Notes under the pieces: model-generated
The model's database searches: none
What the model saw: the letters and a program-made list of their open reading frames with translations, nothing else
What the model was told of the DNA's origin: nothing
In this document: positions 4,761-24,998 of the stretch, one piece after another
How the letters are laid out: every line of letters begins with the position of its first letter
How positions within the stretch are numbered: the stretch's first letter is position 1
Assembly (NCBI RefSeq): GCF_055900595.2
Contig: NZ_CM148325.1
Strand: one strand, 5' to 3'
DNA length: 64,000 nucleotides
Made by a program: the position numbers and the translations under genes

Positions 4761-5167
4761 AATGATGACGTAAATCAATGCAAATCTGCTTACCGACGAA
4801 TTTCTGGCAAACGGCGGCATTCTGGAGAGATGAGAGCTAAAAGTCAACTTAATGGTGGTATTTTTTATATTATTTTGTGGCTCATGCATGTTTTGCAGGC
4901 ATTAAGCGACAAAAAGATCATATAACCCGTTCTGGAAAACGCTTGCGCAGCAAGAAGATTGTATAAAATCAAAACGCGTAGAAAAAAGTGGACCAAATGG
5001 TCAAAATTTACATTAAAACAACAAAAACAGAAGAGAAAACATGTTATTTTTAGCACGATATACGCTTTTATAAATAAAAAACTCAAAATAAAAGGGCTAA
5101 AAATTAAAGCCCTTTATAATCAATAAATTAAATATGTTATTTTTGCACCATCACAAATGTTTTGTGG

Positions 5168-6004
<837 letters not shown>

Positions 6005-6155
6005 TTAATTTGCATAGACCGTTTTCAGAGTAACCAGCGCATCGCTACGCCGCCAGCCAAAAACGCTGATAATTAGAAATTAATGATAAACAGGGAGGGA
6101 TATCAGTGAAAGGCATGAGTCGATGAATGACTGCATGCCGATAACATGTGACAGG

Positions 6156-7076
6156 TTACGACGCCAGAGCCAGCACCTCAGCCACCCACTGCTGGAAACC
6201 TTTCACATCCAGATCCAGCGCCACCTGCACGTTTGCAGGTTTACTCAGGCAACCATCAATATCAACAACCGTAGTACCTGAGGTAAATTCGCCCTGCGTT
6301 TCCACCGCCACAAAACACGGCTTGAGAGTAAACAATTCCGGGTGTACCAGCCAGGCGATAGCGCAAAGATCGTGCATACGCAGTCCACTTTGCATACTGC
6401 CGCTACGGTAGTGGCTAAACAGGGCGTGTAGCATTTTTCCGGTGCGATTCAACTCCGGCAAAGTAGCGAGATAGTCAGGGGTTAACATTGCCTGATTGGT
6501 GACATCCAGACCACACATGACGATTTCGATGCCGCTACGGAAGACACAGGCTGCCGCTTCTGGATCGGCAGCGATATTAAACTCGGCGTTTGGCGTACAG
6601 TTGCCGCGTCCGGCAGAACCGCCCATGATCACCAGACGGCGAATATGCGGTTTGCATTCCGGGCATTGTGAAAGTAACAGCGCAATATTGGTTAACGGGC
6701 CGATGGCTACCAGCGTAACAGGCTCAGGCGCACGCAGCAGGGCATCACGAATCGCCAGAAATGCGGGTTTGTCCAGTGGGCTTCTGTTGTGCTCGACAAA
6801 GTCGTAGCCAGCCATTCCCGATTCACCGTGTACAGATGCCGCATTACGCGGTGCGCGTACCAGCGGCACGGAGGCTCCCTGGGCAAGCGGAATCTCCGCA
6901 TTCCAGAAATGCAGCAGTTGCAGGGCGTTGCGGGTAGTTTTCTCTACCGAGACATTACCCGCGACGGTGGTCATCAGTTGCAGGTCAAGTTCCGGGGCAA
7001 AAATCGCGGCGGCAATGGCGACGGCATCGTCAATGCCTGGGTCAGTATCAAGGAAGATGGGTATAAGTTTTGTCAT
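6156..7076 (-). CDS. rihC: Non-specific ribonucleoside hydrolase
   Basis: 306-aa ORF with [18 protein letters not shown] nucleoside hydrolase motif, recognised as RihC; N-terminus differs slightly from remembered K-12 sequence. Confidence 0.9.
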
Positions 7077-7095
7077 TACTGTCTCTCCTGGCTTG

Positions 7096-8304
7096 TTACT
7101 TGCTCATGGCTTTGAACTCATCGCGGCTGATACAGATATCCGAAATATCTTTATTCGTCACCAGACGCGGGCTAAGTTTATCGCCTTCAACAAACGGTAC
7201 TAGCGGGCAAAATTCCCCTGGAGACGCTTTATCTTCCTGCCACTGAATTTCAATGGATTCCGGCTTCATACCTGGTTTCTCTGACTGAATGACTGTGCGG
7301 ATATCCGTGGTTAACTGAAATGGCTCACACCCCTTCACATCAGTAAAAGTCGGCGTCAGATGACCATTCTTACGTTCCTGCAGATAAAAAATGCGGCCAT
7401 CGTGATAGGAAGGAATTACGTAGCAGGTATACATTTTACCTTTACTTAGCACGGGCTGAAGATAACTTGAACCTCTCTCGATCAATTCAACCTCTTTCCC
7501 CTTCCAGCGATAAACGTCAACCCCGTGACTACAGCAGCTTCCTCGCCAATGGCTGACGATCTGCTTATATTCTGCATCTGGCTCCGGCGAGGTGATTTCC
7601 TGATAAGACGCAGGCGCATCAACAAAACGTTGTGTTGAGGGATCGTAAAGCCAGGTTTGTTCGGGGATATTGGGTCCAGCGGGTAACTCTTGCGGAATGG
7701 AAAGATCCGGATAACCATCAAAATTAACATCCTTCCATTGAGGCGTAAAAATGCTACAAGTGCCGATAGAAGCAGTATATAAGGTCTGTATCGGTTTCCC
7801 ATCACGATATAATTTTATTGCTGAAATGACCGGAACATTATTACAGTCGATCGCTTTGGAAGGGTCGTAATCGTCATTCACTTCCGCCACCAGCACCAGA
7901 TCAATGCCCGGATCGTTTTTGGGTTTGTTATAGTGAAGCGCAATGGGGAAATGGTGTTTTTTATCGGCTGAAGTCCATACACCTTTTATCTCAATCGGTG
8001 AAACTTCAGCATCCCATTGACCAGAAAGTGTCTGTGTGCGCTCCTCAAGAAGCAACCGCTTAACCTGGAGAGATCCACGCAGAATTAATCGCATTTTTCT
8101 CTGATTGCAGGGTTCATAGCAATAGCTACCATGAAGGTCGTTGTTAATCCGCGTGATATCGACACTTACCTGCTTACCCGCAATCGTCCCGGAATAATTT
8201 CGATCCCAGAACGGAAATTCAAGCTGCGAAGCGCCATTGGCCGCTCCCAAACAAAATACAAAAGCCAAAAATCCCGCCAATCCATAAGCTATCTTGCTCA
8301 TCAT
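7096..8304 (-). CDS. Hypothetical secreted cysteine-rich protein (402 aa), function unknown
   Basis: Intact ORF with GGAGG Shine-Dalgarno 7 nt upstream of ATG; hydrophobic N-terminal signal-like segment ([19 protein letters not shown]); about a dozen Cys; slightly lower GC than flanking core genes; sits between ispH and rihC. Confidence 0.7.
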
Positions 8305-8329
8305 CCTTGCCTCCGCAGAAGAGTACAGC

Positions 8330-8365
8330 TAAAAAAAACCAGCAACGAATGTGCTGGTTTTGAAT
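8330..8365 (-). terminator. Putative rho-independent terminator downstream of ispH
   Basis: Hairpin aaaccagcacattcgttgctggttt followed by T-run on the minus strand. Confidence 0.45.
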
Positions 8366-8374
8366 GATTAATCT

Positions 8375-9325
8375 TTACTCGACTTCACGAATATCGACAC
8401 GCAGCTCTTTCGGCACTTCGAAAACAATGTTTTCTTCACGGCCTTCCAGCGGGATGGCTTCACCACCGCCCAGCTGCTGCAAACGTGCTACCACATTCTG
8501 CACCAGAATATCGGGAGCCGATGCGCCCGCAGTCACGCCGACGCAGTTCACGTCTTTTACCCACTCTTCCTGGATATCTTTCGCATCGTCAATCAAAAAC
8601 GCGCGTTTGCCCATACGCTGGGCCAGTTCCGCCAGACGGTTGGAGTTGGAAGAGTTTTTTGAACCAACCACCAGTACTACTTCCGCCTGTTCTGCCAGAG
8701 CGCGTACCGCTTCCTGACGGTTAGTGGTGGCGTAGCAAATGTCATCTTTGCGCGGCCCGACAATTTTCGGGAAGCGTTTACGCAACGCATCGATCACATC
8801 AGACGTGTCATCCACCGACAGCGTAGTTTGGGTCATAAAGGAGAGTTTCTCTTCGTTTTTAACCGTCAGTTTCCACACATCGTCCGGCGATTCGACCAGA
8901 TACATTCCCCCTTCCGGGTTGCTGTACTGACCCATCGTCCCTTCCACTTCCGGGTGACCGGCGTGACCGATAAGAATAGACTCTTCACCACGGCGGCTGG
9001 CACGGGCGACTTCCATATGCACTTTGGTCACCAGTGGACAGGTAGCGTCAAATACCGTCAAATCACGGCTTTTCGCTTCGTTACGTACCGCCTGAGAAAC
9101 ACCGTGTGCGGAGAAGATCAGGATCGCGCCGTCCGGCACTTCGCTGATCTGCTCAATAAAGATAGCACCACGTTCGCGCAGGCTATCGACCACGTAGCGG
9201 TTATGCACCACTTCGTGACGGACATATATCGGTGCGCCGTAAATGGCCAGCGCGTTTTCAACAATGCTGATAGCGCGGTCTACCCCGGCACAAAAACCAC
9301 GTGGGTTGGCCAACAGGATCTGCAT
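8375..9325 (-). CDS. ispH: 4-hydroxy-3-methylbut-2-enyl diphosphate reductase
   Basis: ORF contains [42 protein letters not shown]...; start trimmed to MQILL (ORF track extends 28 codons upstream). Confidence 0.95.
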
Positions 9326-9326
9326 G

Positions 9327-9776
9327 TTACGCCTCCAGTGCCGGATCGATTTCCAGCACTTCAATATCAAAATGAACGGTCTGCCCGGCCAGCGGATGAT
9401 TGAAATCAACGGTAATGGAGTCGCCGTTGATTTCGCGGATCACGCCAGGCATCTCACTGCCATCCATTGCAGTAAAAAGCATGATTGCACCAATTTCTGG
9501 CTCGCCTGCATCCATAAACTCACGGCGGGAGAAGTACTGAATCAGGTCCGGTGACGGCACGCCAAACGCCGCATCTGGCTCCAGCGAGAAGGTGGTTTTA
9601 TCGCCCACTTTCAGCCCCAGCAGGTGTTGCTCCAGACCTTCGGAGAGAGAAGCATCGCCCAGGCGGAACAGCGCCGGTTTACCGTTGTTGCGGGTAGACT
9701 CGGCGGTGGTGCCATCGTCGAGTTTTAGCGTGAAGTGCACCAGGACGGCGCTATTGCTCTGTACAGATTCAGACAT
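9327..9776 (-). CDS. fkpB: FKBP-type peptidyl-prolyl cis-trans isomerase
   Basis: 149-aa [40 protein letters not shown]... recognised as FkpB. Confidence 0.93.
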
Positions 9777-23967: not shown

Positions 23968-24507
23968 CTATAGCTGTTTATTCCAGAGATGCTTGAAAAT
24001 ATCTAATGTGGAGACAACATTGGCAGGCGACATTCGGTTTAATGAGGATAGAAAGGGATGAGACTCCAGGAAGTTGATAAAACGAGTCGCGCTTGCTAAC
24101 GTCGAATACCGCATTTCATTTGCTTTCTTGTTTCCTGTAAGGTTACAAACAGCCATTGAATAATCACGGGCGGAAAATGCACGCCAGACATTATTTCTCA
24201 CGCCACCACTCAAAAACAACCGCGGCGGCGTATCATAATGAGTCGTTTTCTCGCCGCGTTCTTTCACAAATGAAATATGGCACCGGCCTTGATGAATATG
24301 CTGTAAATTAGCCATTAGACAACCGCCTAATATAAAGCACTCGTGATCAAGGTAGTGTTGAATATTTATAGAATATGCTTCAGTCAGTACTCTAACCAGT
24401 TCAAAATGGCGATACGCCGGAAGAACAGGTTTCACCAGCATCCCCGGATCGTTTTGATGTAATATCGCCCGACCATAATCAATATCAAATAAAGTATCAC
24501 GTCGCAT
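23968..24507 (-). CDS. Hypothetical protein (179 aa), function unknown
   Basis: ORF with its own strong Shine-Dalgarno (AAGGAG 8 nt upstream of ATG); overlaps the 3' end of the upstream zinc-ribbon ORF by 76 nt in another frame; no recognisable motif. Confidence 0.5.
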   Translation of the reverse strand: MRRDTLFDIDYGRAILHQNDPGMLVKPVLPAYRHFELVRVLTEAYSINIQHYLDHECFILGGCLMANLQHIHQGRCHISFVKERGEKTTHYDTPPRLFLSGGVRNNVWRAFSARDYSMAVCNLTGNKKANEMRYSTLASATRFINFLESHPFLSSLNRMSPANVVSTLDIFKHLWNKQL

Positions 24508-24944
24508 AGTAAGTAACTCCTTGCGTTGTACGTGATGCGCCAGTGTACCAGAAGTAATAATTTACGGATATCAGCAAGTGAAGCGCCTTGCTCAATCATC
24601 AATGCTAAATGTGTTCTTCGCGGCGTTGTATTTACATGATCCAGAGTGATAAAAGTTCCGGAACAATGATGACAATACATTCTCCTCTGCCCCTGAGCTG
24701 AATAGCCATACTTTTTCAGAGATGTGCTTCCGCAAGCTGGACATTGTGAAACCAACCCTCGCCATGAATGATTAACACGATTACGATAAATATTAAGAGA
24801 TCGTTCAGATATCACAGGAAACAAGTAACCGCATTCTCGACATAAAATATTTTTGCCTTGTGCAATATAATCCTGGCTATTCAACAACCCCAGGTTTTTG
24901 CATCCTGGTGTTTTGCAACAATCAACATTTACGTTGGTAAACAT
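24432..24944 (-). CDS. Tandem zinc-ribbon plus putative HTH protein, IS1 InsA-like
   Basis: Four CxxC pairs (CCKTPGC, CRECG, CPACG, CHHCSG); the second ribbon (CPACGSTSLKKYGYSAQGQRRMYCHHCSGTF) resembles the IS1 InsA zinc finger; start set at MFTNVNVD, which has an AGGGAG Shine-Dalgarno (ORF track starts 12 codons earlier without one). Confidence 0.5.
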   Translation of the reverse strand: MFTNVNVDCCKTPGCKNLGLLNSQDYIAQGKNILCRECGYLFPVISERSLNIYRNRVNHSWRGLVSQCPACGSTSLKKYGYSAQGQRRMYCHHCSGTFITLDHVNTTPRRTHLALMIEQGASLADIRKLLLLVHWRITYNARSYLLCDVILYLILIMVGRYYIKTIRGCW

Positions 24945-24998
24945 ATTCACTCCCTGCGAATACCCGGATATTATCGTCATATGTCAAAGAAAAGAACC

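Follow-up and report, generated by a model that had tools for sequence, protein, structure and literature searches.

In Xanthomonas citri, the periplasmic lipoprotein X-Tfi(XAC2610) provides immunity to X-Tfe(XAC2609), a GH19 peptidoglycan hydrolase of the type IV secretion system (T4SS), by inhibiting it (PMC6536674, PMC10933484). Residues 151-159 of XAC2610 form a Ca2+ loop, and a second loop, residues 165-173, is predicted to enter the active site with Tyr170, a residue at the tip of this inhibitory loop that contacts the effector's catalytic Glu and whose replacement (Y170A) weakens inhibition (PMC10933484). PliI and Tsi1 share the β-propeller-like topology of XAC2610 and use topologically equivalent loops (PMC10933484), and XAC2610-like orphan immunity genes occur in Salmonella Typhi, for example t0732 in the t0728-t0735 islet (PMC7400221). 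Here, we analyze a gene related to this family that lies between ispH and rihC, at positions 7096-8304 on the minus strand of a 64,000-nucleotide stretch of DNA (the window; RefSeq assembly GCF_055900595.2, contig NZ_CM148325.1). A preliminary description, made from the sequence alone, had presented it as encoding an unannotatable, cysteine-rich secreted protein inserted at that junction.

We find that the feature is real but already catalogued, and that it reflects a loss polymorphism, not a novel insertion. Judged from its sequence and predicted fold, the product appears to be a three-domain, Tyr-less, effector-less protein related to XAC2610-type peptidoglycan-hydrolase inhibitors. We hold the statements on the identity, ancestry and homology of the gene with high confidence throughout.

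A DUF8339 protein with an XAC2610-like core

The open reading frame (ORF) is complete and, as the preliminary description had recognized, well initiated: it runs for 402 codons from the first of two adjacent ATGs (8304) to a stop codon at 7096-7098, and a GGAGG Shine-Dalgarno (SD) sequence read at 8310-8314 lies 5 nt 5′ of the first ATG and 8 nt 5′ of the second. The second ATG (8301) is the start chosen by the RefSeq Prokaryotic Genome Annotation Pipeline, giving 401 residues. The ORF is a functional gene rather than a chance reading frame, because full-length homologues exist in three proteobacterial classes, the ratio of nonsynonymous to synonymous divergence (dN/dS) is 0.17-0.31, and the AlphaFold2 model reaches a mean predicted local distance difference test score (pLDDT) of 90.4, with a predicted template modeling score of 0.82.

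The family searches that had been proposed identified both a characterized relative and a named family, and the protein is thus far from unannotatable. In NCBIfam, it has one match, NF047539 (XAC2610_fam; E 2.2e-25, 89 bits against a curated cutoff of 35), in which residues 189-277 (positions 7474-7740) align with positions 2-89 of the 89-position model. Among 5.8 billion clustered proteins, a search returned 61 clusters, nearly all of them full-length (~390-460 residues): the window protein is 99% identical to one of these (P0001), a PF27031 carrier, and the other 60 share 31-81% identity over 70-100% of the length, with all but one flagged PF27031. PF27031 is DUF8339, of which the window protein is a full-length member, aligning end to end with 52 homologues. 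Full-length homologues come from Gamma-, Beta- and Alphaproteobacteria (41 species loci), and soil Pseudomonas, Burkholderia, Massilia and Comamonas commonly encode family members. In 7/9 Escherichia coli carrier genomes, RefSeq already names the product "XAC2610-related protein".

Other searches of the protein returned little. A Pfam-A scan gave no match even at E ≤10, because the release used predates PF27031; phmmer against PDB sequences yielded noise only (an AAA ATPase at E ~1); and neither the PADLOC nor the PHROGs models matched, with 0 families in each library. We also considered the MliC/PliC inhibitors, and found no Pfam MliC domain and no specific fold match to these 8-stranded β-barrels. 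Searches of the available literature library returned no paper on DUF8339 and nothing relevant for STM0050. The family is already catalogued and has no characterized member. The suggestion of an undescribed function accordingly survives for the three-domain family as a whole but not for its central domain, which belongs to the characterized XAC2610 family.

The protein begins with a signal peptide (residues 1-24, 8233-8304; predicted cleavage site) that looks to be of the Sec, signal peptidase I type, with basic residues at its start, a hydrophobic middle and A-N-G as its last residues, in agreement with the signal-peptide-like N-terminus noted previously. AlphaFold2 confidence is low here, where residues 10-19 form a helix, and the model is folded from about residue 27 onward. 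Signal peptides occur throughout DUF8339, and the protein is predicted to be exported via Sec to the periplasm. No conserved lipobox was detected: the residues before C18 are F-V-F, and the family does not conserve C18 itself. The "dozen" cysteines amount to 11, one in the signal peptide and 10 in the mature protein. Across the family they are lost pairwise (C154/C183 in 5 sequences, C294/C326 in 7, C257/C258 in 1), while C62/C66 and C366/C391 are invariant; because cysteines vanish in pairs, the pattern implies five sequential disulfides, one of them vicinal (C257-C258), a predicted arrangement that would fit oxidative folding in the periplasm.

Three domains follow the signal peptide. The family alignment and the model define an N-terminal 8-stranded up-and-down β-barrel (residues ~25-130, 7915-8232) with an invariant G-x-Y-C-Y-x-P-C motif (C62-C66), then a linker and XAC2610-like core with approximate boundaries (residues ~131-305, 7390-7914), and finally a β-rich domain with a terminal helix (residues 306-402, 7099-7389) that carries the invariant C366 and C391 and for which no solved structural neighbour was found. 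The most conserved segment spans residues 189-222 (7639-7740) and contains, in order, a Ca2+-loop-like D192-x-N194-x-D196-G-x-x-D200 motif, a near-invariant L-P-A-G-P-N-I-P loop and W-L-Y-D. Family conservation is highest at residues 191-220, followed by a W-R-x-S-C-C-x-H motif at residues 251-260 (7525-7554) that includes the vicinal C257-C258 and H260. In the family alignment the Ca2+-loop-like motif has invariant D196 and D200 and at least 90% conservation at D192 and N194; D243, R254, H260 and the CC pair are among the other invariant residues.

The central domain is homologous to XAC2610 in both sequence and fold. Structure prediction and the structural-neighbour search, both suggested at the outset, placed the AlphaFold2 model in the same fold as the XAC2610 crystal structure 4QTQ. 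At the sequence level, D192-V-N194-F-D196-G-Y-P-D200 aligns with D-I-N-G-D-G-H-E-D of XAC2610, so that Ca2+ binding is predicted at this site and Ca2+ probably stabilizes the protein; C257-C258 and H260 also have counterparts in XAC2610 (GDGCCIH). The stretch aligned to the XAC2610 inhibitory loop is of nearly equal length and keeps a G-P.

Other features differ. XAC2610 has 267 residues, whereas the window protein has 402, with the additional N-terminal barrel and C-terminal domain; XAC2610 carries a lipoprotein box, whereas the window protein has a Sec signal without one; XAC2610 inserts a loop bearing Tyr170, whereas the corresponding loop here is LPAGPNIP, with no Tyr; and XAC2610 is encoded next to its effector, whereas the window gene has no effector with an XVIPCD signal nearby and stands alone among housekeeping genes. 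Because two mechanistic hallmarks (Tyr170 and the lipobox) and the adjacent effector are all missing, we file the protein as DUF8339, or "XAC2610-related", rather than as an X-Tfi.

A candidate inhibitor of peptidoglycan hydrolases

We favor, at a probability of about 0.45, a reading in which the protein would be an orphan periplasmic inhibitor of peptidoglycan hydrolases. After Sec export and oxidation to five disulfides, it would be stabilized by Ca2+ at the DxNxDGxxD loop and would bind an incoming peptidoglycan glycosidase through the LPAGPNIP loop, whose exposure is suggested by the alignment, thereby blocking the catalytic cleft. The alignment to XAC2610 makes this loop the likely counterpart of those that XAC2610, PliI and Tsi1 insert. 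Its target would most likely be a GH19-type glycosidase injected by a competitor's type VI secretion system (T6SS) or T4SS. In E. coli, Salmonella and most other hosts, which encode no cognate toxin nearby, the gene would then act as an orphan immunity or lysozyme-inhibitor-type defence gene; such a gene would help only against a matching attacker, which would fit the patchy retention, frequent loss and truncation of this one.

Several described systems bear comparison with this proposal. For PliI and Tsi1, the proposed mode is alike, with an exposed loop inserted into the active site of a peptidoglycan hydrolase, and PliI is likewise a stand-alone chromosomal periplasmic gene without a cognate toxin. 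The S. Typhi gene t0732 is similar as an effector-less, XAC2610-related enterobacterial gene that has been read as protection from other bacteria's toxins. It differs in belonging to a multi-gene immunity array elsewhere in the genome, whereas the window gene is single, occupies a conserved core-genome slot and encodes the larger three-domain DUF8339; we liken the two by description only.

The genomic context of DUF8339 in Burkholderiales points in the same direction. Two distant family members, from Burkholderia sp. F1 (L053) and B. ubonensis LMG 20358 (L046), are encoded within T6SS modules whose genes share one strand, in the order vgrG, an effector of 788/822 residues, one or two small signal-peptide proteins, DUF8339 (459/460 residues), PAAR, a 390-residue protein and tssM. 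The effector has an M23-like N-terminus, for which Pfam support is only E ~2, and a C-terminal profile that matches GH19 endolysins and chitinases in the PDB (9MS7, 7.7e-6; 5H7T, 4.4e-5; 4OK7), the enzyme class inhibited by XAC2610; homologues bear the database names "M23 family metallopeptidase", "predicted chitinase" and "lysozyme family protein". A homologous module in Cupriavidus basilensis encodes a 158-residue XAC2610_fam protein just upstream of PAAR (44.6 bits against the cutoff of 35). The Massilia DUF8339 gene abuts the end of a vgrG-effector operon in convergent orientation; the effector concerned is again of the M23+GH19 type in M. kyonggiensis (L024).

The N-terminal barrel also keeps company with cell-wall hydrolases and toxins. 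Its profile, searched against 1.84 billion representative proteins, gave 827 matches at E ≤1e-3 (41 at E ≤1e-10) in proteins of ~100-1,100 residues. A Pfam survey of 28 selected longer matches found DUF3298/PdaC in 5-6, eCIS_core toxin domains in 5, Muramidase, Phage_lysozyme and Lipase_3 in 2 each and GH19 in 1, together with weak NlpC/P60 matches. The barrel is also fused to CHAP, the DUF3298/PdaC partners are RsiV-like, and in two ~1,000-residue proteins NCBIfam identifies endolysin-like domains at the C-terminus, immediately after the barrel. Since the fusion partners include such hydrolase and toxin domains, the barrel's company fits the peptidoglycan-hydrolase theme, and the survey suggests that it may be a cell-wall or hydrolase-associated binding module.

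Several observations weigh against the inhibitor reading. Tyr170 has no Tyr counterpart in either the HMM (hidden Markov model) or the hhalign comparison, falling within an insertion in the latter, and the near-invariant LPAGPNIP loop contains no aromatic residue at all. The very high conservation of the motifs across three proteobacterial classes would also suit an enzyme, or a protein that binds some conserved ligand. How the Ca2+ loop, the CCxH motif and the LPAGPNIP loop lie relative to one another in space is something that we infer from the alignments. At 38/43 loci, including all enterobacterial ones, there is no T6SS gene or effector within ~6 kb, and tblastn found no GH19/M23 effector homologue in the 64-kb window. 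The genomes with a T6SS-embedded gene are closely related Burkholderia; in Massilia sp. Root133 (L042), the neighbouring effector differs while the convergent DUF8339 gene stays put; and three modules with the same effector family (L056, L058 and L059) contain no detectable XAC2610-family gene. A better candidate for cognate immunity within the modules is the protein whose translation is coupled to that of the effector, and these proteins belong to other small exported families. For these reasons, namely the relatedness of the Burkholderia cases, the changed effector in Massilia and the three modules without an XAC2610-family gene, we regard the association of DUF8339 with T6SS as suggestive and not as a rule.

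Two further proposals did not survive inspection. DUF8339 as the regular cognate immunity protein of M23+GH19 effectors is unsupported, given the composition of L056, L058 and L059. A 222-residue Massilia protein downstream of the effector, which looked XAC2610-like by eye ("DINGDGKLD"), had no NCBIfam match and an hhalign probability of 1.4%.

The same survey brought up a highly modular, uncharacterized T6SS effector/immunity system in Burkholderiales. In Paraburkholderia phenoliruptrix (L058, 2624-12460), tandem units of an M23+GH19-like effector, a small exported protein and PAAR follow a single vgrG, and the small proteins of such units belong to several unrelated families across species. 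In Massilia sp. Root133 (L042, 7404-9011, minus strand), a 535-residue protein with a transmembrane-like N-terminus directly follows vgrG, and its C-terminal region, judged by eye, resembles RelA/SpoT-like nucleotide pyrophosphokinase toxins.

The main rival to an inhibitor is a periplasmic envelope protein with no role in immunity: a Ca2+-dependent, FG-GAP/VCBS-like binder or scaffold that recognizes peptidoglycan or another envelope glycan, a regulator of an endogenous hydrolase, or an enzyme or metal protein with a site formed by CC-x-H, D243 and R254. The very strong motif conservation across Gamma-, Beta- and Alphaproteobacteria speaks for such a non-inhibitory envelope-binding or enzymatic role, as do the missing inhibitory Tyr, the FG-GAP/VCBS labels on relatives in the AlphaFold Protein Structure Database (AFDB), the recurrence of the N-terminal barrel in multidomain envelope and hydrolase proteins, and the fact that most copies stand alone. 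Among 43 non-redundant loci, no neighbour is conserved across genera, leaving only within-genus synteny and antisense shadow ORFs inside the gene, and the Pseudomonas, Lysobacteraceae and Comamonas copies lie among unrelated genes. Yet no catalytic family in Pfam, NCBIfam or the PDB matches the protein, its only characterized homologue is an enzyme inhibitor, and the placement in Burkholderia T6SS modules would be left unexplained. The gene is also dispensable, as 99.8% of E. coli have lost it and many Salmonella entries are truncated, a pattern that would be unusual for a housekeeping envelope factor. We consider a role of this kind a serious possibility, if on present evidence an unlikely one.

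A more specific version of the inhibitor reading, which we advance tentatively and with some doubt, is that DUF8339 could be a new stand-alone Pli-type family of lysozyme or muramidase inhibitors beside Ivy, MliC/PliC, PliG and PliI. The invariant LPAGPNIP loop would then act on an XAC2610-like scaffold, aided by a barrel module that recurs in cell-wall hydrolases, and would protect against GH19-type T6SS or T4SS toxins or against environmental enzymes of the GH19 lysozyme/chitinase type. Were this so, the near-complete loss from E. coli would mark a changed set of competitors. If the inhibitor reading holds, the gene would offer a way into an uncharacterized family found widely among Proteobacteria, many of whose database entries carry the wrong name "nitrite reductase", and three-domain proteins would join the inhibitors known to act on cell-wall-degrading toxins. 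For experiments, the B. ubonensis T6SS module is ready to use, as are the rare E. coli and E. albertii strains that carry the gene.

Ancestry and loss at the ispH-rihC slot

The gene is rare in E. coli: it occurs in 9 of 5,426 complete genomes, 5,425 of which match the flanks. All nine copies are chromosomal, single-copy and intact, at 97.5-99.7% identity. The presence/absence comparison that had been proposed thus upheld the rarity of the gene, but not its novelty, as it is already annotated in RefSeq. K-12-like genomes do have only a short gap at this position, as the preliminary description had stated, in the form of a distinct 65-bp ispH-rihC spacer with its own hairpin, and their RihC differs at the N-terminus (304 residues, MRLPIFLD..., versus 306 residues, MTKLIP..., in the carriers examined).

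Outside the nine carriers, the slot is filled in relatives. The Salmonella homologue (69% amino acid identity) lies in the order ileS-lspA-fkpB-ispH-[DUF8339]-rihC, and the E. albertii orthologue (89%) and a second E. coli allele (81%; L050/L051, gene at 8001-9209) occupy the same position between ispH and rihC. Citrobacter freundii and Enterobacter have the upstream ileS-lspA cluster in common, with the 3′ end of ispH directly before the gene, and in Entomohabitans the DUF8339 gene adjoins rihC. The Salmonella cluster itself has 4,762 members, a figure not usable as prevalence since the cluster also contains RihC sequences; several Salmonella entries in the AFDB are only 127-331 residues long, which suggests that the gene is frequently truncated there.

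Selection on the intact copies is evident. dN/dS is 0.29 against E. albertii, 0.31 against the second allele and 0.17 against Salmonella, compared with 0.02-0.11 for neighbouring genes, and per-domain values of 0.15-0.57 are all below 1, with the central core lowest; the gene is under purifying selection and evolves faster than housekeeping genes. This bears directly on whether the gene is a decaying relic, intact in appearance, no longer useful in E. coli and heading for loss. Its presence in only nine genomes, the truncated Salmonella entries, a lower GC content and poorer codon adaptation than in the neighbours, and a promoter scan that found no sigma-70-like promoter on its strand in 6900-8700, with a terminator directly upstream, are all consistent with decay. 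Against this, the ORF is intact in 9/9 genomes as well as in E. albertii and the strains with the second allele, the constraint is strongest in the core, and the strong SD and all ten mature cysteines have been retained, which together make a relic improbable.

We find it more improbable still that the protein is a secreted or surface adhesin, or a virulence-type FG-GAP/VCBS-like protein acting on the host. The signal peptide, the Ca2+-loop motif, the FG-GAP/VCBS labels on distant structural relatives and the type III effector gene that the closest complete genome carries in the vicinity would accord with that idea. However, the protein shows no outer-membrane or secretion-system signal beyond Sec, the gene is not linked to virulence loci, the closest solved homologue is periplasmic, and the family is common in soil genera.

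The preliminary description had the gene "inserted", and recent horizontal insertion, for example as a small islet between ispH and rihC, could appear to follow from the GC content of 45.9%, the rarity in E. coli and the block of raised divergence from K-12 around the gene. The lower GC is real (GC at third codon positions is 45.2%, and the gene lies ~8 points below carA, dapB, rihC, ispH, fkpB, lspA and ileS, at 52.3-55.6%), but it is common to the orthologues and is therefore a property of the gene, not a sign of recent arrival. Synonymous divergence (dS, Nei-Gojobori) between the window gene and Salmonella is 1.25, within the 1.0-1.6 of ispH, fkpB and rihC, and nucleotide identity to E. albertii is 90-94% within the gene, equal to the flanks; these matches argue for vertical descent over recent transfer, and the latter equality also rules out recent introgression from E. 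albertii. The gene is not flanked by repeats, direct or inverted (the search gave a single weak inverted repeat inside it), and its surroundings contain neither an integrase nor a tRNA gene. In tblastn searches, plasmids gave nothing beyond one 3.2-Mb Burkholderia replicon, and phage records gave no convincing phage copy. With a syntenic slot in Salmonella, E. albertii and the second allele, and related arrangements in Citrobacter and Enterobacter, recent insertion is already contradicted, and we rate it as highly unlikely.

Four phage records (OR845292.1, OR851504.1, OR851769.1 and AFYI01000001.1) contain a DUF8339 gene of the Salmonella type. Since each is either a very short fragment (1.5-4.3 kb) or a Salmonella contig of 290 kb, they look like mislabelled bacterial DNA.

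We conclude that, in Enterobacteriaceae, the slot between ispH and rihC was ancestrally occupied by this gene, which ~99.8% of E. coli have since lost by deletion. Because the slot is syntenic in relatives and both the K-12 spacer and the RihC N-terminus differ, the common E. coli state is best described as a deletion or replacement allele. A defence-type gene would thus have been at one core-genome position since before the Escherichia/Salmonella split and retained in few E. coli, making the locus useful for studying how orphan immunity genes are kept and lost. The legacy database name "nitrite reductase", which is favored only by its propagation through NCBI, UniProt and AFDB entries, is effectively refuted and should be dropped: no such family matches in Pfam, NCBIfam or the PDB, the sequence has no CxxCH haem motif, the fold of a β-barrel and an XAC2610-like domain is unrelated, and the current NCBI rule renames the protein "XAC2610-related protein".

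The two E. coli haplotypes are old, because the region from ispH to carA is unusually divergent from K-12: identity is 89-94% from the 3′ half of ispH (93-94%) through rihC (~90%) into dapB-carA, against 96-99% further out. Two observations concern recombination in and around the gene. Positions 4900-5500 are only 88-92% identical even to the closest carrier genome, compared with 99-100% elsewhere, which points to a recombination or diversity hotspot comprising rihC (6156-7076) and the stretch from the dapB 3′ end to the region upstream of carA (4900-5600). In the second E. coli allele, divergence is concentrated in the 5′ two-thirds (82-83% nucleotide identity), and dS in the barrel domain is 0.82 versus 0.19-0.32 in the other domains, which suggests a mosaic or recombinant history.

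Transcription signals and other features of the window

The gene and its two neighbours all lie on the minus strand. Upstream lies ispH (8375-9325) and downstream rihC (6156-7076, the 306-residue form), whose ATG at 7076 begins 19 nt beyond the stop codon, the spacing that had originally been noted. The terminator-like hairpin reported after ispH is also present, as an intrinsic-terminator-like structure with a 10-bp stem and a U-run at 8335-8361 (ΔG -12.3 kcal/mol, z -3.7; 0/200 shuffles folded equally well), ~20 nt 5′ of the SD. Its stem is identical in E. albertii, the second E. coli allele and Salmonella; Citrobacter and Enterobacter have other stems at this position. Transcription of the DUF8339 gene may come from read-through from ispH or from a promoter within ispH. 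An Rfam search of 6000-9500 returned no match.

Elsewhere in the window, we observed three further loci. At 15257-16729 (plus strand), a 490-residue ORF lies between rpsT and a fimbrial cluster, and its counterpart in EC42405, the closest complete genome, is annotated "type III effector"; over 14800-16000, the alignment to K-12-type and E. albertii loci is poor, at 70-90% identity. The fimbrial cluster that follows (~16970-21550, plus strand) is broken into several ORFs of 167-227 residues, and the EC42405 annotation lists its chaperone and usher genes as pseudogenes, either frameshifted or partial, suggesting that a chaperone-usher operon has decayed here. Finally, at 23968-24980 (minus strand), ORFs of 179 and 182 residues (23968-24507 and 24432-24980) overlap by ~75 nt. 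The EC42405 counterpart is a single 1,245-nt "cytoplasmic protein" gene, adjoining sulfatase-family and ompK-like genes between nhaA and mokC, and the window copy may be frameshifted.

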